From: Candidatus Zambryskiibacteriota bacterium
GTDB taxonomy: Bacteria; Patescibacteriota; Minisyncoccia; Phycocordibacterales; WO2-35-19
Direction: 5' to 3'
Length of the DNA: 64,000 bases
Assembly (NCBI GenBank): GCA_016932555.1
Contig: JAFGCQ010000004.1
Location: forward strand, 990 to 64,989
The notes beneath the pieces were generated by a model. The model saw nothing but the letters and a program-made list of their open reading frames with translations, did no database searches and was not told the origin of the DNA. Of this stretch, positions 3,863 through 59,724 are shown one piece after another; position 1 is the first letter of the stretch, and each line of letters opens with the position of its first letter. Made by a program: the position numbers and the translations under genes.

Positions 3863-3937
3863 CGCGACCGATGGGACTTGAACCCACAACCTCCCGCGTG
3901 ACAGGCGGGTGCTCTAACCAAGTTGAGCTACGATCGC
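3863..3937 (-). tRNA. tRNA-Asp (anticodon GTC)
   Basis: Cloverleaf: acceptor GCGATCG/CGGTCGC, anticodon loop CTGTCAC, T-loop TTCAAGT. An AT-rich terminator hairpin follows at about 3820-3858. Confidence 0.9.
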
Positions 3938-4052
3938 ATTTTTATATATTTTTCAAAAATCTCTCTTTTCCTTTTTAGAAATAATTTTGAAAAACCTATC
4001 CTATTATACATAAAATCATAGAGTTTTAAAGACCCTATGCTATAATTTAAAC

Positions 4053-4256
4053 ATGCAACCAGAAGAACAAAATAAAATAGCCGAACTAGAGGCTAAGATT
4101 GACGCAATTTATAAGTCAGTCGAGAAAACTCGTAAAATAATGCTTTGGACGAGCATAATTACTGCAGCAGTCATCATTTTGCCACTAATCGGGCTCTTAT
4201 TCGTGATACCTTCGTTTATAGATTCTTACACTACTGCTCTAGACGGCCTTCTGTAA
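4053..4256 (+). CDS. Small single-pass membrane protein
   Basis: ORF with one clear hydrophobic helix; no recognised family. Confidence 0.4.
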   Translation: MQPEEQNKIAELEAKIDAIYKSVEKTRKIMLWTSIITAAVIILPLIGLLFVIPSFIDSYTTALDGLL

Positions 4257-4467
4257 GCTTATTCCTCATTTCTATAATCATAGTAGTAAACCAAGTTAAG
4301 AAAGAAGCCAGGCCAACAACAAAAAAAGTTAGAACATATTGCATGATAGTGTTTGGCCCTTGAGATGACTGCTCCATAGGGCCCCAAATAGCTATGAGCA
4401 TGAGAATAGCGGTAATCACCATGCAGGAAAGGAATATTCTTAATGTGGCTTTTTGTAATTTGCGCAT
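4231..4467 (-). CDS. Small two-helix membrane protein
   Basis: ORF with two hydrophobic segments; convergent with 4053-4256. Confidence 0.4.
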   Translation of the reverse strand: MRKLQKATLRIFLSCMVITAILMLIAIWGPMEQSSQGPNTIMQYVLTFFVVGLASFLTWFTTMIIEMRNKLTEGRLEQ

Positions 4468-5609: not shown

Positions 5610-7079
5610 TTAAGTTGTCTCTCCCAGAAAATTTTTGCCAATTTCGAATAAAACATTTTCATTGCCATGAGCAGACATAAGTTGTATGCCAATCGGCAGA
5701 TCTTTGTCATTTATTTTAGCAAATCCAGACGGGATCGAAATAGCGGGTATGCCGGCGATATTAGCTGTAACCGTAAAAATATCAGCCAGATAATTTTCTA
5801 AGGGGCTAGTTTTTTCTCCTATCTTCCAGGCTGGTGTCGGAGCCGTCGGAGTTAAAACTACATTTACTTCATTAAAAGCTTTATTGAATTCATTCTTAAT
5901 AACTTCTCTAGCTGCCATAGCTTTGCCATAATAAGCGTCATAATAGCCGGCTGAGAGCACGTAGGTGCCAAGTATAATCCGCCTTCGTACTTCCGGACCT
6001 AAGCCTTCACCCCTAGTTTTTTTGTAAACTTCCATCAGATTACTTGTCCTGAGCGGAGTCGAAGGGTTGCCGTCCAAAGATAAACCGTATTTGATACCAT
6101 CATATCTGGCCATATTTGATGAGACTTCTGCCGGCATAATTATGTAATAAATAGTGAGTGATTTGTCTATATTTGGTAGTTTAATATCTTTAATTTCAAA
6201 ACCCAAATTTTTTAATTTTTCTACTGATTCTTCAAAATTTTCTTTCACTTCTCTCGAAATACCATCCTGCTCAAGTAAATGATAAGGCACGCCGATTCTT
6301 AAATCCCGAGATGAATCTTGGAGTGACCCGACCGATTTGCCGTCATGGCGGACAGGAATATGCGAAGTGCTATCATACTTGTCCTGACCTTTTATAACAT
6401 TAAAAATTATTTCAGCATCAGCAACTGATTTAGTGATAGGTCCTATTACATCAAGAGATGACCCCATGGCCATAAGGCCATAGCGAGATACGCTGCCGTA
6501 AGTTGGCTTCAACCCTACACAGCCACAAAAGCTGGCTGGTTCCCTGATTGAACCACCCGTATCCGATCCTAAGGCTCCTAGAGCCATATTAGCCGCTACA
6601 GCGGCCGCAGAGCCACCAGAAGAGCCACCAGCTACTTTTTCCGGATCATGGGGATTTCTGGTCACTCCAAACGCTGAATTCTCGGTAGAGCCACCCATAG
6701 CGAATTCATCCATATTGGTTCTGCCTATAAATATTCCATTTTGTTCAAGAATTTTCTTCGCTGCAGTAGCTGTGTATGTCGCTTTGTAATTTTCTAAAAT
6801 CTTAGAAGCAGCGCTGGCCTTCTTGCCTTTTATTAAAATATTATCCTTTATAGCTAAAGGTATACCGGTTAAATCTTTGGAATCGCCTTGATCAATGATT
6901 TTTTGAGCCAATTTGGCTTGCTCTAAAATATCATCATAAACTTCCAAATAAATATTAAGTTCTTTATTTTTATCTTCAATCTGCAGAAGGGCACCTTCTG
7001 TAAGTTCTTTAGCCGAAATCTCTTTGCTATCTAGCAATTTTCTCGCTTCTTTAATTGTCAAATCTTCTATTTGTGTCAT
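5610..7079 (-). CDS. gatA: Asp/Glu-tRNA(Asn/Gln) amidotransferase subunit A
   Basis: Amidase signature GGSSGGSAAAVA and full-length GatA-like sequence, followed by gatC. Confidence 0.9.
   Translation of the reverse strand: MTQIEDLTIKEARKLLDSKEISAKELTEGALLQIEDKNKELNIYLEVYDDILEQAKLAQKIIDQGDSKDLTGIPLAIKDNILIKGKKASAASKILENYKATYTATAAKKILEQNGIFIGRTNMDEFAMGGSTENSAFGVTRNPHDPEKVAGGSSGGSAAAVAANMALGALGSDTGGSIREPASFCGCVGLKPTYGSVSRYGLMAMGSSLDVIGPITKSVADAEIIFNVIKGQDKYDSTSHIPVRHDGKSVGSLQDSSRDLRIGVPYHLLEQDGISREVKENFEESVEKLKNLGFEIKDIKLPNIDKSLTIYYIIMPAEVSSNMARYDGIKYGLSLDGNPSTPLRTSNLMEVYKKTRGEGLGPEVRRRIILGTYVLSAGYYDAYYGKAMAAREVIKNEFNKAFNEVNVVLTPTAPTPAWKIGEKTSPLENYLADIFTVTANIAGIPAISIPSGFAKINDKDLPIGIQLMSAHGNENVLFEIGKNFLGETT
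6036..6065 (+). repeat. GC-rich short repeat, in-frame copy inside gatA (encodes PSTPLRTSN)
   Basis: Matches 2478-2507. Local GC island in an AT-rich gene. Confidence 0.7.
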
Positions 7080-10632: not shown

Positions 10633-11235
10633 TTATAAATCCAAAGTTCTCCTAGAAGCTACAGTCTGCAATGAAAATTCGGTTTTAGTGGTTGCATCTT
10701 CTCCGACATGGCCTTTTACGACAATGAGTACGTATGGTTGAATATCATCACCAGGATTACTACCATAAACATAAAATTTTAAATCATCAATGATGGCTTC
10801 TTGTGAAGTAATTCTTTCAAAATCTCCTCCATTGTAAGATTTTTCAATAGAATGTTTAATATCATTAAATTTATATTGTACTCTGACATTATTTGTTAAA
10901 TCGGTATCATAAAAAGTCACTGACAGCGTCCCACTTCCATCATTGTTAATATTGCAATCGCCCACATCAGGATCCGGACTGAGAGCACAATCATAATTTT
11001 TGCCAAACTTTATAATCCTGGCCATGTCTTCAACTACAATATTTAAATTGTCCACTACTGTCTTAGATGTCCTAGACTTTCGGTTAGCATCAATGATACT
11101 AATAATAGATCCAGCAGAAATAGCCACTACTAAAAGAAATAAAGTAATAGCTACCGTCATCTCTATCAGAGTAAAGCCCGCCCGCTTCGCAGGAATTTTC
11201 AATTTCCGATTTCCAATTTTCAATTTATTTCTCAT
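10633..11235 (-). CDS. Prepilin-type minor pilin (PilW/GspJ-like)
   Basis: AGFTLIEMTVAITLFLLVV motif. Start moved to the ATG just after the upstream stop (ORF track extends to 11268). Confidence 0.65.
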   Translation of the reverse strand: MRNKLKIGNRKLKIPAKRAGFTLIEMTVAITLFLLVVAISAGSIISIIDANRKSRTSKTVVDNLNIVVEDMARIIKFGKNYDCALSPDPDVGDCNINNDGSGTLSVTFYDTDLTNNVRVQYKFNDIKHSIEKSYNGGDFERITSQEAIIDDLKFYVYGSNPGDDIQPYVLIVVKGHVGEDATTKTEFSLQTVASRRTLDL

Positions 11236-54995: not shown

Positions 54996-55026
54996 AAAGC
55001 GCTCGCCGCAAAGGCAAAGCGCTTTT
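54996..55026 (-). terminator. Terminator at the end of the spc/secY/adk/map/ndk block
   Basis: AAAAGCGCT/AGCGCTTTT stem. Confidence 0.6.
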
Positions 55027-55182
55027 GTAGGATTGTTTGTGATTATTCCCTAATTGCAAAAATTAAGGTGGGTGACCTCAATTGTATTGATTAGTTCTCG
55101 ATTGTTATCGAGCATCACCTCTTTACAAAGATATTGGTCTCCCTAAAAAAGTTCAAACTAGAAAATATCCAAACAATCCTAC
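55027..55182. repeat. 156-nt unit bounded by a 13-bp perfect inverted repeat, in the ndk 3' region
   Basis: GTAGGATTGTTTG (55027-55039) and CAAACAATCCTAC (55170-55182). Confidence 0.7.
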
Positions 55183-55838: not shown

Positions 55839-56633
55839 CTATCTTGTCAAAACTTCTATTCCATTCTTTGTAACCGCTACTGTATGCTCAAAATGAGCAG
55901 AAAGAGATTTATCACGAGTAATAAAGGTATAGCCATCAGAGAGACGCTTGATTTCACGACTACCTAAAGAAAACATCGGCTCAATAGCAATAACTAGCCC
56001 TTCTCTAAGTTCCGGCCCTTCGCCCCTCTCGGCTCGATTGGGTACATACGGTTCTTCATGGACACTATAACCTACCCCGTGACCTGACAAGCCTTCTATT
56101 ATGCCCAAATTGTATTTCATAGCCACTTGCATAATAGCCGCCCCAATATCACCTATATGGCCACCGATTTGCATAGTGTTAATGCCTTTTTCTAAAGCTT
56201 CATAAGTCGCTCTAATGAGAGTCGCGGCATCATCGCTAATTTTACCAACTGGTACAGTAATGGCTGCGTCAGTAATCATGGGTCTTACTTGTGGTGAACC
56301 AGTCAAACTATAAGTAAAACCCATATCCAAAGAAACGATATCTCCTTCAAATAAAATCCGATTGCCGTCATGATTTGGAATACCGTGAACAATTTCTTCA
56401 TTTATGGAAACACAAAGCGAGGCCGGGTAGGGTTTTGAAGCATCATCAGATTGATAGCCAAAAAAAGAGCCGACGCCACCCGCTTCATCGATAAGTTTTT
56501 CGGCGTAATCATTAAGCTCTTGAGTTTTAACCCCTGCTTTAACTTTTTGGGCCACTTTTTTTAAAATCTTCGCGTGAATCTTACCTCCTTCCCGCATCAC
56601 TGCTATTTCTTCTTCTGTTTTGTATTTGATCAT
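55839..56633 (-). CDS. map: Methionine aminopeptidase type I
   Basis: Family-typical metal-ligand segments (D..D..H..E..E). Confidence 0.9.
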   Translation of the reverse strand: MIKYKTEEEIAVMREGGKIHAKILKKVAQKVKAGVKTQELNDYAEKLIDEAGGVGSFFGYQSDDASKPYPASLCVSINEEIVHGIPNHDGNRILFEGDIVSLDMGFTYSLTGSPQVRPMITDAAITVPVGKISDDAATLIRATYEALEKGINTMQIGGHIGDIGAAIMQVAMKYNLGIIEGLSGHGVGYSVHEEPYVPNRAERGEGPELREGLVIAIEPMFSLGSREIKRLSDGYTFITRDKSLSAHFEHTVAVTKNGIEVLTR

Positions 56634-57220
56634 AATCCAATTTTGCTTATTATCTCTTTATGAACTTCATCGATTGTTTGTTCGCCGTTTATTTCTATAA
56701 ATTTATAATAGTGATTGTTTTTGAGATATTCCACAGTTGGTAAAACTTTTTCTTTAAACCAATCTAGCCTGTTTTTTATATCTTCTTCATTGTCATCAGT
56801 CCTGCCTCTATCTTTCATTAGCTTGGTAACCCATTCATTTGAAGCATTTATCGAAATAACCATTGGGTTCTCTCTTTCATAAAATTTTAAAGCATCACTC
56901 AGTATATACGCTTCACCAAGTTTACGAGGTGTACCATCAAAGAAAATAGTCACATCTGGAGAAAGCTCTTCAACCAAGCGCTTAGTCCAAATGTAGATAG
57001 GCATAAACTCAGGAACTAATTCACCCTGATCTAAAATTTTTTTGACTCTTTGGGATGTGAAAGATTGGGTTTGGGTAAGTTTTCTAAATCCTTCCCCAGT
57101 TTCTATATAGATAATTTTTTGCTCAGGATATTTTTTCTTAATTTCTTCCTGTAGGAGCTTAGCTTGGGTACCCTTACCGCAACCAGATGGCCCTAAAAAT
57201 ATGAAAGTTTGCGGTTGCAT
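56630..57220 (-). CDS. adk: Adenylate kinase
   Basis: P-loop GPSGCGKGTQ. ATG at 57220 preferred over the ORF-track start at 57247. Confidence 0.85.
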   Translation of the reverse strand: MQPQTFIFLGPSGCGKGTQAKLLQEEIKKKYPEQKIIYIETGEGFRKLTQTQSFTSQRVKKILDQGELVPEFMPIYIWTKRLVEELSPDVTIFFDGTPRKLGEAYILSDALKFYERENPMVISINASNEWVTKLMKDRGRTDDNEEDIKNRLDWFKEKVLPTVEYLKNNHYYKFIEINGEQTIDEVHKEIISKIGL

Positions 57221-57240
57221 GAAATAAGTATAACATAAAT

Positions 57241-57285
57241 CCCCCACTCGGGACTAGTCCTCGACCTCCCCTTGATCAGGGGAGG
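57241..57285 (-). repeat. Family B-related GC-rich element (hairpin CCTCCCCT-TGATC-AGGGGAGG)
   Basis: Shares both ends with 57657-57702; direct repeat flanking the DUF559 gene. Confidence 0.6.
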
Positions 57286-57305
57286 CAATGCGCGATAATT
57301 AGGAA

Positions 57306-57656
57306 ATGACAAGAGTTCATAATATCCGCAAACTTTCAGATCGCAGGAAAGAATTACGAAAAAACCAAACAAAAACCGAAGAAAAACTCTGGTGGTATTT
57401 GAAAGATAAGAGGCTGGGAATTAAATTCAGAAGACAGCACAGTATAGGAGGATATATTTTAGATTTTATATGCAAAGAAAAGAAATTGATTATAGAAATT
57501 GATGGTAGAGTACATTTGAAAAAAGATAATAAAGAATACGATAAAGTTAGAGACAAATATTTTGAAGAGTTAAATTATAAAGTTCTGAGATTTACGAATG
57601 ATGAGGTTGAAAATGGGGTTAAAGAGATTATTGATGTTATAAAGCGGTATCTTTAA
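57306..57656 (+). CDS. DUF559 (Vsr-like) endonuclease-domain protein
   Basis: TEEKLWWYLK...FRRQHSIGGYILDF...IEIDG..H...D..RD..L...GY.VLRF pattern. Confidence 0.8.
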   Translation: MTRVHNIRKLSDRRKELRKNQTKTEEKLWWYLKDKRLGIKFRRQHSIGGYILDFICKEKKLIIEIDGRVHLKKDNKEYDKVRDKYFEELNYKVLRFTNDEVENGVKEIIDVIKRYL

Positions 57657-57702
57657 CCCCCACCCCTCAATTCGTGTAGCCCTTCTCTTGATCAGGGGAG
57701 GG
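57657..57702 (-). repeat. Family B GC-rich element, inverted copy
   Basis: Its reverse complement aligns along the whole length of 58407-58451 (about 80 percent by eye). Confidence 0.75.
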
Positions 57703-57724
57703 AAAACCAAAATCATACAAAAAG

Positions 57725-57748
57725 AAAACCGCCATTCAGCGGTTTTCG
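57725..57748. terminator. Bidirectional terminator between convergent genes
   Basis: AAAACCGC-CATTCA-GCGGTTTT with T-runs on both strands. Confidence 0.6.
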
Positions 57749-57770
57749 GTTGAAAATCATTGAAGAGCGA

Positions 57771-58322
57771 TTATATCAAAATCCTCCCATTATACTCATG
57801 GAACCCGATTTCTCCACTGGTAGCCGTGAAAAAAATATGCTCCATTCCAGCAAAATTTTCGAATCCGCCCCCGAGAAAAATAGTGTTTTCATACTTAAGA
57901 AGGTTTTTATCATAGTTTCCTACACGAGTATCATTATAAAAACCGTGTGTAGCTAAACCTCGTCCACCATGGAATTCACGTTGTTTGTAGGCGTAATTAA
58001 GCGCCATTTTCAAAAAACTGATCACTTCCTTAGGATAACATCCAGAATAAGACATCCACCACACGGCCATCCATCTTCCTCTGGGTCTGAACCTATAAAA
58101 GATAGTGGTTGTACCGGCGGAAAAATCTGAAAGCGGTGTCACACAATAGTGATCTACCACTTTGTAGTTACCGGATACAAAAGTGATTCTTTTGTATCCG
58201 CTAGATTCTATGACTTTAACAGAATTCTTTTTGTTTCCAGCATATCCGTCAAGCATAGCATCGAAGAATACTTTTTCTGCTTTTTGAATGATTTTCTTTC
58301 TCTGTTTGGACTCTAGTTCCAC
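57771..58322 (-). CDS. Hypothetical protein, DUF5680-like (tentative)
   Basis: Pattern ...AMLDGYAGN...W.MSYSG....EVISFLK.AL...FHGGRG recalls DUF5680. From memory only. Confidence 0.4.
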   Translation of the reverse strand: MELESKQRKKIIQKAEKVFFDAMLDGYAGNKKNSVKVIESSGYKRITFVSGNYKVVDHYCVTPLSDFSAGTTTIFYRFRPRGRWMAVWWMSYSGCYPKEVISFLKMALNYAYKQREFHGGRGLATHGFYNDTRVGNYDKNLLKYENTIFLGGGFENFAGMEHIFFTATSGEIGFHEYNGRILI

Positions 58323-58406
58323 TGTTGGCTCCTTTCACCCATTAGGTCTGACTCAGGTTATACAACAATATAAAAATTAAAGCAAGAATAAAAAATACCG
58401 CGCGTT

Positions 58407-58451
58407 CCCTCCCCCGTCCAGGGGGAGGGCTACACGAAGTGAGGGGTGGGG
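58407..58451 (+). repeat. Family B GC-rich element abutting the secY stop codon
   Basis: CCCTCCCC-CGTCC-AGGGGGAGGG hairpin plus CTACACGAAGTGAGGGGTGGGG tail. Confidence 0.75.
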
Positions 58452-58452
58452 A

Positions 58453-59724
58453 TTAATATTCTCTTGCAGAGATTTGAGCATCAACTTTTTTAACGAGATC
58501 AAGAACCACTGAAACTACGATAAGAAGTCCTGTACCGCCTATAGCCACTGCGCTGATACCAGTAGCCGCCCTTACTATTAAAGGCAAAACAGCAATTAAT
58601 CCCAAGAAAATAGCGCCAATCATGGTTAAACGGGAAAGGATTTTGGCTATATATGAGGAAGTCGAGGAACCGGGTCGAACTCCCGGAATAAAAGCACCGC
58701 CTCTCTGTAAATTTTTGGAAAGATTCTCCGGATCAAAAGTAATAGCTGTGTAGAAATAAGTAAAAACAAAAACTAATAAGAAGTAGGCAATGCCATAAAA
58801 AATCTGGTTAGAAAGCAAAGCAAGTAGAAATTCAGAAATCTTTTGGATTATAGTATTGTCTACATTAGCTAAAAAGCGGATTATCATTTGAGGAAAAAGT
58901 AATATGGAAAGAGCAAAAATTATAGGAATCACCCCAGCTTGATTAACTCTTAAAGGTAAATAAGTGGAAACTCCACCATACATTTTATTACCTCTAACTT
59001 GTTTAGCGTAAGTTATCGGTATGGGTCTTTCTGCTTCAGTAATAACTACTACACCCCAAATCACTGCTATGGCAGCCGCCAGAAAGCCAATATACATCGG
59101 CAATTGAGATGGATCAAAAGCAAATAAAAGCTGGCTAGTCGCACTGGGTAAAATAGCAACAATGCCGGCAAAAATGATAAGCGAGACTCCGTTACCAATA
59201 CCAAATTCAGATACTAACTCACCAAGCCACATAAGAAGCATTGAACCGGCAGCAATTACTATAAGATTTGTTAGCAATTCAAAACCAGCAAGTTTACTTA
59301 AAACATTCTGATTTTGAAGAAGAATAATAAAAGCATAACCTTGCATTAAAGCTAGAGGCACAGTCAAAAATCTTGAATATTGAGAAAATTTTCTGCGTCC
59401 TAATTCACCCTCTTCTTGATACATAGCCTTGAGTTTAGGAAACATAACAGTCATAAGCTGCATAATAATAGAAGCGGTAATATATGGCGACACACCGAGC
59501 ATAATAATTGAAAGATTAGACAAACCACCACCCGAAAAGATATTTAAAAGTCCAAAGAAATCATTATCAGACATAAACTGCTCTAATTTAAAAGTATCAA
59601 TACCGGGAATTGGGATAGAGGCCATCAAACGGAAGAGAGCCAACATTACAAGGGTAAAAATTATTCTCTTTCTTAAATTTTTATCCCCTAAGACTAATTT
59701 TATTTTGTGAATAAAATTTTGCAT
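58453..59724 (-). CDS. secY: Preprotein translocase subunit SecY
   Basis: Ten-TM SecY sequence; follows rplO. Confidence 0.95.
   Translation of the reverse strand: MQNFIHKIKLVLGDKNLRKRIIFTLVMLALFRLMASIPIPGIDTFKLEQFMSDNDFFGLLNIFSGGGLSNLSIIMLGVSPYITASIIMQLMTVMFPKLKAMYQEEGELGRRKFSQYSRFLTVPLALMQGYAFIILLQNQNVLSKLAGFELLTNLIVIAAGSMLLMWLGELVSEFGIGNGVSLIIFAGIVAILPSATSQLLFAFDPSQLPMYIGFLAAAIAVIWGVVVITEAERPIPITYAKQVRGNKMYGGVSTYLPLRVNQAGVIPIIFALSILLFPQMIIRFLANVDNTIIQKISEFLLALLSNQIFYGIAYFLLVFVFTYFYTAITFDPENLSKNLQRGGAFIPGVRPGSSTSSYIAKILSRLTMIGAIFLGLIAVLPLIVRAATGISAVAIGGTGLLIVVSVVLDLVKKVDAQISAREY

Follow-up and report, generated by a model that had tools for sequence, protein, structure and literature searches.

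What separates secY from adk in a genome of Candidatus Zambryskiibacteriota? We analyzed a stretch of 64,000 nucleotides from contig JAFGCQ010000004.1 of this bacterium (assembly GCA_016932555.1; G+C content 35%), which we refer to as the window and whose numbering we use throughout; L-numbers such as L001 are labels of recovered contigs and loci. The gap between the two genes (57241-58452) holds, in this order, a repeat (A), a DUF559 gene on the plus strand, a second repeat (B), a bidirectional terminator, a gene on the minus strand for a 183-aa DUF5680-like protein, and a third repeat (C). An earlier note on this DNA had proposed that a mobile or selfish cassette invaded the junction, and this is the best reading, because the insertion is bounded by repeats and the same gene pair occurs in other genomic contexts. 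Judged by their sequence, the three repeats are triplex-type motifs rather than plain hairpins. The repeat class is already known; the cassette in the window is a new instance. We consider it reasonably likely that the repeat and the DUF559 gene form a selfish unit, here with a passenger, which descends mostly vertically and occasionally relocates.

The coordinates and gene calls that the earlier note gave for secY, adk, DUF559 and the 183-aa open reading frame (ORF) hold, and the bidirectional terminator that it marked is a real hairpin. The features of the locus are these:

56630-57220, minus strand: adk, adenylate kinase, the flank downstream of the insertion (Pfam ADK, E 2e-23; an ATG at 57220 gives the usual MxxxFIFLGPSGCGKGT start)
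57227-57235, minus strand: extended -10-like box TGTTATACT, 6 nt upstream of the adk ATG, the putative adk promoter (read from sequence)
57241-57294, plus strand: repeat A, outer cassette end on the DUF559 side (hairpin -11.2 kcal/mol)
57306-57656, plus strand: gene for a DUF559 / Vsr-like PD-(D/E)XK endonuclease, 116 aa (PF04480, E 9.5e-34)
57657-57705, plus strand: repeat B, a solo degenerate copy of the C subtype, directly 3' of the DUF559 stop codon (52-nt inverted repeat with C, 85%)
57724-57747, no strand assigned: bidirectional intrinsic-terminator-like hairpin between the convergent genes (-9.5 kcal/mol, z -3.8; kept in L005 and L006)
57771-58322, minus strand: DUF5680-family gene, 183 aa, the passenger (22.3 bits against PF18931; AlphaFold model with pLDDT 91)
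58323-58397, minus strand: leader/promoter region of the DUF5680 gene (TATTTT..TTGCTTT..), kept in L005 and L006 by alignment
58398-58452, minus strand: repeat C, outer cassette end on the DUF5680 side, touching the secY stop codon (hairpin -12 kcal/mol)
58453-59724, minus strand: secY, the flank upstream of the insertion (Pfam SecY, E 1.3e-100)

An independent Logan assembly (L001) was 100% identical to the window over 6327 nt spanning the locus, so the locus is not a binning artefact. Rfam returned no match at the locus and, at gathering threshold, only 5 tRNAs in the whole 64-kb window.

A search for other copies of the repeat-bounded unit recovered the same gene pair in two other contexts. 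In L006 the cassette lies between yebC and ruvB, as does the convergent DUF5680-DUF559 pair of a contig from JGI 3300075153, and in L005 it adjoins DUF378 and a MacB transporter. When the window was aligned with L006 and L005, homology extended over both genes, the terminator and the DUF5680 leader, and its limits on both sides coincided exactly with the C-rich outer tips of the end repeats. Repeat A and the DUF559-side end of L006 were identical at 61 of 65 nt, compared with less than 80% DNA identity between the DUF559 ORFs, and the two ends of the L006 cassette were identical to each other at 51 of 58 nt. By these alignments the cassette ends are conserved more strongly than the genes and are under constraint.

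We aligned the three repeats formally and found every pair related beyond chance. Global alignment scores were 17.5 for A and B (shuffles 4.3 +/- 1.9), 23 for A and C (5.0 +/- 2.0) and 31 for B and C (3.6 +/- 1.8), each above every shuffle. The inverted copies of about 45 nt that the earlier note had seen around the 183-aa gene correspond to a 52-nt inverted repeat between B (57653-57704) and C (58405-58456), 85% complementary. A and C are likewise similar in inverted orientation (47 of 54 aligned), that is, they are terminal inverted repeats. The note had also described A and B as direct copies flanking DUF559. They are indeed related, but the similarity (44 of 57 aligned) is confined to the tail and the main hairpin. 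They belong to different subtypes, and B is an extra insertion of 66 nt whose homologous place in the L005 and L006 cassettes is without it in the alignment. The true cassette ends are A and C because B is missing from those two cassettes, and the bounds drawn earlier (A with B, and B with C) fall away. The stem of B contains two G-T mispairs and gives no stable DNA hairpin (z ~0), and from its sequence B is a later solo insertion, a decayed copy of the C subtype. No further copy of the three repeats was found in the window by pattern, BLAST or hairpin scans.

Repeat A is made up of a C-rich tail (57241-57247), a mini-hairpin (57248-57264), a pyrimidine/purine hairpin (57265-57285) and an inner motif, CAATGCGCG (57286-57294). 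Repeat C, read on the plus strand, runs from CCGCGCGTT (58398-58406) through the hairpin (58407-58429) and a mini-hairpin (58430-58442) to a G/T tail, GGGGTGGGG (58443-58451). In each of the three homologous cassettes the inner motif, AAYGCGCG, lies 3' of the purine arm at either end (window 57286-57294 and 58398-58406; L005; L006), and the left end of L006 has GTGCG where all other ends have GCGCG, a C-to-T change at a CpG. The inner motif was rejected as a general feature of the repeats: it was present in 7 of 138 elements, in the closest relatives only.

To describe the repeat family we surveyed 80 metagenomic loci with DUF559 relatives that were 42-74% identical. In the full element (~50 nt) a C-rich tail (for example CCTCACCCC, CACCACCCC or CCCCACCCC) comes first; in many copies a small variable hairpin follows, and then comes the pyrimidine/purine hairpin, in which the 5' arm is all pyrimidine and the 3' arm all purine. 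Compensatory changes were seen in the mini-hairpin (CTCAC..GTGtAG versus CTCGC..GCGtAG; GGTC..GACC versus GGCC..GGCC). Across 134 distinct elements, the tail was the mirror image of the pyrimidine arm: arm CCCCTCCT went with tail CACCACCCC, CTCCTCCT with CACCACCTC, CCCTCTCC with CCTCACCC, and CCTCCCCC with CCCCCTCC. A G interruption was mirrored too (arm CCCCGCC, tail CCGCCCC), and arm and tail covaried class by class. Of 131 asymmetric arms, 107 matched the tail better in the mirror than in the direct register, and the mean mirror match was 0.935, versus 0.836 +/- 0.007 when tails were paired with the arms of other elements. On the G-rich strand, a pyrimidine arm and a loop are followed by the purine arm, a spacer and a G/T tail antiparallel to the purine arm, with G.G-C, T.A-T and A.A-T as the implied triplets.

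This arrangement is that of the intrastrand triplex motifs (TM, formerly PIT; Holder et al. 2015, NAR 43:10126, PMC4666352; Hoyne and Maher 2000/2002 cited therein), which are defined as three consecutive blocks with triplets C-G.G, T-A.T or T-A.A and loops of 1-6 nt. Nuclear magnetic resonance (NMR) showed that the motif of E. coli, CCCTCTCCCC-ttt-GGGGAGAGGG-tta-GGGTGAGGGG, forms a triplex in vitro, and the E. coli motifs were reported to lack promoter and terminator activity (PMC4666352). TMs are associated with locally rearranged, unstable genome regions; mobility functions were never found near them, nor was any common flanking function (PMC4666352). The window repeats and their family follow the three-block triplet rule (stems of 6-15 nt, at most 1 mismatch), and the relatives include short-form copies, with a second loop of 2-5 nt, that fall within the published definition. 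When the strands were aligned by hand, the tail of repeat C mirrored its purine arm over 8 triplets, and repeat B fitted the rule through its purine arm. The first loop of the window copies is 5 nt long, and the second, of 13-17 nt, holds the mini-hairpin; the folding energies, from ViennaRNA, cover the Watson-Crick hairpins only.

The resemblance to TMs is thus one of three blocks on one strand with a G/T third strand mirroring the purine arm, in elements that are GC-rich, intergenic, multi-copy, without strand bias and located in locally variable genome regions, and the short form in the relatives and in Bacteroidota has the layout of the E. coli motif. The window elements differ in the length of the second loop and its covarying mini-hairpin, and in that they bound a gene cassette as its inverted ends, in tight linkage with a DUF559 gene. 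We also considered a G-quadruplex or i-motif reading of the G/C tracts and rejected it: it leaves the mirrored A/T and G interruptions unexplained, and the E. coli NMR data favored a triplex. A role at the RNA level, as 5' UTR (untranslated region) structure or terminator, was likewise set aside. Upstream of DUF559 the repeats stand in both orientations, 44 forward and 24 reverse, which favors a feature of the DNA.

The second component of the unit is the nuclease gene. The DUF559 protein matched PF04480 with 116 bits (cut-off 20.6) over profile positions 3-106 of 109, NCBIfam PRK09767 at E 5.9e-22 (under the equivalog cut-off), and the solved structure PDB 3HRL at E 6.5e-17; PADLOC gave only a weak "homing endonuclease" match (E 8.7e-4). 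We recovered 648 homologues at E<=1e-10, the best of them 78% identical, and in 44 homologues residues D53, E64, D66, H70, D83 and R95 were invariant. These residues mark DUF559 as a Vsr-fold nuclease with conserved catalytic-type residues, a prediction from sequence.

We then asked how closely the gene and the repeats are linked. With a strict hairpin detector, a triplex-type hairpin was found within 100 nt upstream of 60 of 77 DUF559 genes, compared with 7 of 196 other ORFs from the same loci (Fisher p 1.5e-36). The hairpin usually lies 6-30 nt before the DUF559 ATG, and many loci have another after the stop codon. Repeat density was 6.8 per kb near the ends of DUF559 and 0.26 per kb elsewhere. 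Distant repeats were closer to the DUF559-adjacent repeats of their own locus than to those of other loci (5.3 versus 7.05 +/- 0.31). A scan of genome contigs with the single DUF559 protein gave 11 distant loci (39-53% identical), and not the genome of the window itself; among them were units in Bacteroidota metagenome-assembled genomes in which repeat, DUF559 and repeat lie in frame inside leuS (L008, L009, L012) or metH (L013, L014). These units occupy locus positions ~3900-4450 (2350-2900 in L012) and add ~150 codons without a stop to the host ORF. The in-frame insertion in leuS explains why JGI names several DUF559 proteins "leucyl-tRNA synthetase".

The link extends to E. coli. In strain K-12 (L099, NC_000913.3 1351040-1351830) a degenerate triplex-type hairpin lies over the stop codon of ycjD, a DUF559 gene, and is followed by a partial duplicate of the ycjD 3' end and then by a complete E. 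coli triplex motif. Of 5426 complete E. coli genomes, 3343 are collinear over sapF-ycjD-fabI. In E. coli Nissle (L105) the slot upstream of fabI instead holds an RND efflux operon and a TetR-family regulator, and collinearity with K-12 resumes ~40 nt past the position of the K-12 motif. Published work found eefRABCD in the sapF-fabI slot wherever ycjD is absent and concluded that ycjD came to stand "in place of" eefRABCD in two or more independent events; its authors did not consider ycjD to belong to an element associated with repeats (PMC12817139). The ycjD locus thus resembles the window cassette in that triplex-motif copies lie at the 3' end of a DUF559 gene, whose slot holds other genes elsewhere; it differs in that clear motif copies are downstream only and that there is no passenger gene. 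We found no report linking DUF559 or ycjD to triplex-type repeats in the searchable literature, and a description outside that literature is possible. The tight association of DUF559 with the repeats, the capture of passengers and the long-loop variant of the motif appear to be new.

What the repeats enclose varies from locus to locus. Among repeat-bounded slots, L047 has DUF559 alone, L029 has DUF559 with a cytidine/dCMP-deaminase-family gene, L033 has DUF559 with a 130-aa ORF, another contig, also from JGI 3300075153, has DUF5680 alone upstream of tatD, and the window has DUF559 with DUF5680. The deaminase-family passenger (L029 3350-3796) overlaps the DUF559 stop by 8 nt, and its presence beside a Vsr-like nuclease, of the T:G mismatch type, may or may not be a coincidence; the 130-aa ORF (L033 465-857) has no Pfam match.

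The 183-aa protein itself scored 22.3 bits against DUF5680 (PF18931), just under the cut-off of 25. Nine homologues, 45-59% identical, were found, and 8 of the 9 carry PF18931 in a precomputed table. A profile built from the homologues drew in 1193 cluster representatives at E<=1e-3. The AlphaFold model predicts a large antiparallel sheet packed by two helices, with no significant structural neighbour in PDB or BFVD, and the protein had no match in a PDB sequence profile search, PADLOC or NCBIfam. The nine contigs with homologues represent six different neighbourhoods. In L002, L003 and L004 the DUF5680 gene stands alone between the genes for RNase Y (rny) and a beta-CASP nuclease, ~4.7 kb from adk; in the window the rny/beta-CASP junction is only 89 nt long and DUF5680 is absent from it. 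DUF5680 occurs without DUF559 in five contigs (L002, L003, L004, L007 and the tatD-linked one) in four neighbourhoods, and the same kind of search returned more than 640 DUF559 homologues and 10 for DUF5680. Nothing ties DUF5680 to DUF559 functionally.

Next, we compared the secY-adk junction in related genomes. The closest SecY proteins among 5.8 billion sequences were 83-85% identical, so this is not a comparison of strains, and the filled and empty junctions are not true alleles. The insertion that the earlier note had proposed is absent from the two relatives with empty junctions, L100, with a bare spacer of 14 nt, and L002, with a spacer of 138 nt free of any of these elements. In L103 and L104 the junction is 171 nt long and holds one solo long-form repeat, in the orientation of repeat C and with arms of another subtype, and in L004 an element lies just upstream of adk. 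The empty spacers have no conserved target in common beyond the -10 box of adk.

Other changes were noted around this junction. In one close relative (L101 and L102; SecY 84% identical) synteny ends after secY, and adk is replaced by a gene for a 318-aa protein without any Pfam match (L101 4357-5313; L102 2894-3850), followed by unrelated genes; the synteny break makes the secY-adk junction a rearrangement point in this clade. In L004 (4801-4965 and 5140-5195) the spacer from map to adk contains, as insertions, a 54-aa ORF together with a GC-rich terminator-like hairpin and one solo triplex-type repeat. This repeat begins directly after the adk stop codon; upstream of adk, where the contig ends, there is another repeat, of the short form.

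The earlier note was concerned that operon transcription must read through or terminate at the cassette. This concern was resolved by an extended -10-like box (TGnTATAMT) located 6-8 nt before the adk ATG in five Zambryskibacteria genomes: the window, L002 (~10772-10785), L100 (4273-4286), L103 (~4425-4443) and L004 (~5786-5805). The box suggests that adk probably has its own promoter and a leaderless mRNA whether the spacer is filled or not. Because the same box is present with or without an insertion, the secY-adk spacer would already have been a transcription-unit boundary before the cassette. Repeat C touches the secY stop codon and has no T-run after it, so secY transcription most likely enters DUF5680 and stops at the common terminator (57724-57747).

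How might such a cassette have come to lie here? We propose that the repeat-plus-DUF559 unit is a selfish element that now and then relocates with a neighbouring passenger, in this case DUF5680, to AT-rich gene boundaries or to pre-existing copies of the repeat. DUF559 would recognize, nick or cut at or near the triplex or hairpin DNA of the repeats, or would recognize their duplex sequence. The ensuing repair, through recombination or gene conversion involving different copies of the repeat, would carry the DNA in between to a new site in a homing-like manner. The solo repeat in the secY-adk spacer of L103 and L104 would be the kind of landing site that such a model needs, its arms being of another subtype. 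With neither a target-site duplication nor a transposase gene present, a transposase-type reaction is unlikely. A PD-(D/E)XK nuclease alone cannot do strand transfer.

Several observations weigh against this proposal. No target-site duplication flanks the cassette in the window (...ATAAA/T and A/TTAAT, the slash marking its edge) or in L006 (CAAAA/ and /TTTAC), and a recognizable recombinase or transposase is absent, neither ORF having a transposase domain in Pfam. No near-identical cassette or DUF559 unit was found at two sites: the closest DUF559 protein is 78% identical, and among 83 units none at >=90% identity stood in different contexts, bar one duplicate contig. Related DUF559 units often keep the same neighbours in genomes that share 55-90% identity in the flanking proteins, as in the metG-tatD slot of L029, L039, L043, L047 and L048 and in the pairs L034/L058 and L059/L073; other pairs of similar units lie in unrelated contexts. 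Since the units are syntenic between diverged genomes, movement must be rare. With SecY only 83-85% identical, the empty sites are imprecise and do not distinguish insertion from replacement of the spacer. The nuclease activity of DUF559, its substrate and its cut site are all predicted. So is the triplex in the window, where the second loop of 13-17 nt lies outside the published 1-6 nt; the tail of repeat A fits the mirror rule only approximately by hand alignment (~6 triplets with a one-base slip) and B is decayed. Stable triplex was not detected in vivo in E. coli (PMC4666352).

An alternative account would do without any dedicated mobility: in it the repeats are fragile or recombinogenic, a local rearrangement moved DUF5680 the 4.7 kb from the rny/beta-CASP junction, and DUF559 is a housekeeping Vsr-like repair nuclease using the repeats as regulatory or terminator sequences. 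Triplex motifs are tied to local genomic instability, with no mobility genes nearby (PMC4666352), the secY-adk junction is variable in the clade, with the synteny break in L101/L102, many DUF559 units are inherited vertically, and a Caulobacter DUF559-domain protein is a Vsr-like nuclease tied to cytosine methylation (PMC12907096). Local shuffling, however, does not account for a DUF5680-DUF559 pair that keeps its leader, terminator and repeat ends across three unrelated neighbourhoods. The repeat-DUF559-repeat units in frame inside leuS and metH of Bacteroidota also speak against it. Moreover, no cytosine methyltransferase gene adjoins DUF559 in the window, and neither promoter nor terminator activity was reported for the motifs in E. 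coli (PMC4666352), so that we regard this account as unlikely. Even less probable, in our judgement, is a classical free-standing homing endonuclease gene with one specific site in the empty secY-adk spacer, or at another host site, and with repeats that are incidental. Related units lie at many different, unrelated sites, their constant neighbour is the repeat and not a host sequence, and the empty spacers offer no common target beyond the adk -10 box. This is set against the membership in the Vsr/DUF559 structural clade of a proven group I intron homing endonuclease, I-Bth0305I (PDB 3R3P; PMC3424549), the weak PADLOC match to "homing endonuclease", and the insertion of the unit into highly conserved genes and junctions.

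The earlier note had also allowed for a small defence module, which would make DUF559 a toxic nuclease and DUF5680 its partner or inhibitor, as in a two-gene defence or toxin-antitoxin system. The two genes lie side by side in four contigs or more, and a nuclease beside a small protein of unknown function is a common layout of such modules. Yet the genes are convergent with a terminator between them, each occurs alone (DUF5680 without DUF559 in the five contigs named above, and almost all DUF559 genes without DUF5680), and PADLOC had no match for the 183-aa protein and a weak one for DUF559. We therefore dropped this idea as highly improbable. A selfish unit of repeat and DUF559 gene is left as the reading that we prefer.

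Known systems offer partial parallels to such a unit. REPs (repetitive extragenic palindromic sequences) are simple palindromes with a conserved tetranucleotide, and their partner RAYTs (REP-associated tyrosine transposases) are HUH/Y1 enzymes related to the IS200/IS605 transposases. As in REP/REPIN-RAYT systems, short structured repeats flank a usually single-copy gene of nuclease type, the repeat subtype follows the gene lineage, the gene is mostly vertical and solo repeats are intergenic. The cassette differs in having a Vsr-like PD-(D/E)XK nuclease with no HUH/Y1 enzyme gene, and a repeat that is a three-block triplex-type motif. Terminal inverted repeats with homology ending at their tips recall insertion sequences and MITEs (miniature inverted-repeat transposable elements), from which the cassette is set apart by the missing target-site duplication and transposase domain. 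By analogy, its behaviour resembles a REP/RAYT partnership more than an active insertion sequence. With the Vsr-fold homing endonucleases such as I-Bth0305I the cassette has in common the structural clade, the invasion of conserved genes or junctions and the presence/absence polymorphism; it is without intron or intein, framed by repeats and found at many insertion sites. Rickettsia palindromic elements are selfish in-frame insertions in protein genes and carry no gene. The Bacteroidota units in leuS and metH are similar in that the host frame continues through them; they differ in embedding a whole nuclease domain, and the window copy is intergenic.

Apart from the cassette, we noted a probable divergent 6S RNA in the window at 55026-55182 on the minus strand, between ndk and a DUF2238 gene. 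The match to Rfam RF00013 was below threshold (32.1 bits versus a gathering value of 46.4; E 4e-5). A TATAAT box precedes the candidate and a terminator-like hairpin follows it, and its long rod-like fold is kept in L100, L103, L002 and L004 with compensatory changes at 8 pairs.

Catalogues of triplex repeats cover hundreds of bacterial genomes, with no protein partner, origin or mode of spread found, and DUF559 is a very common nuclease family that includes ycjD of E. coli K-12. We tentatively suggest, by analogy with REP/RAYT and as a possibility that we would not yet bet on, that DUF559 proteins, including E. coli YcjD, are the missing enzymes that create, maintain or spread the TM/PIT repeats. 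Two orphans would then explain each other: the triplex repeats that had no protein partner and the DUF559 family that had no role. If this is true, the DUF559-triplex partnership spans Patescibacteria, Bacteroidota and Proteobacteria, and it could carry passengers, split conserved operons and occupy in-frame positions within essential genes. The window indicates that such a unit can split one of the best conserved gene junctions of bacteria with expression unbroken, because adk probably has its own promoter in this lineage. The link between DUF559 and the repeats across phyla makes both questions, the partner of the repeats and the role of the nuclease, testable in E. coli.

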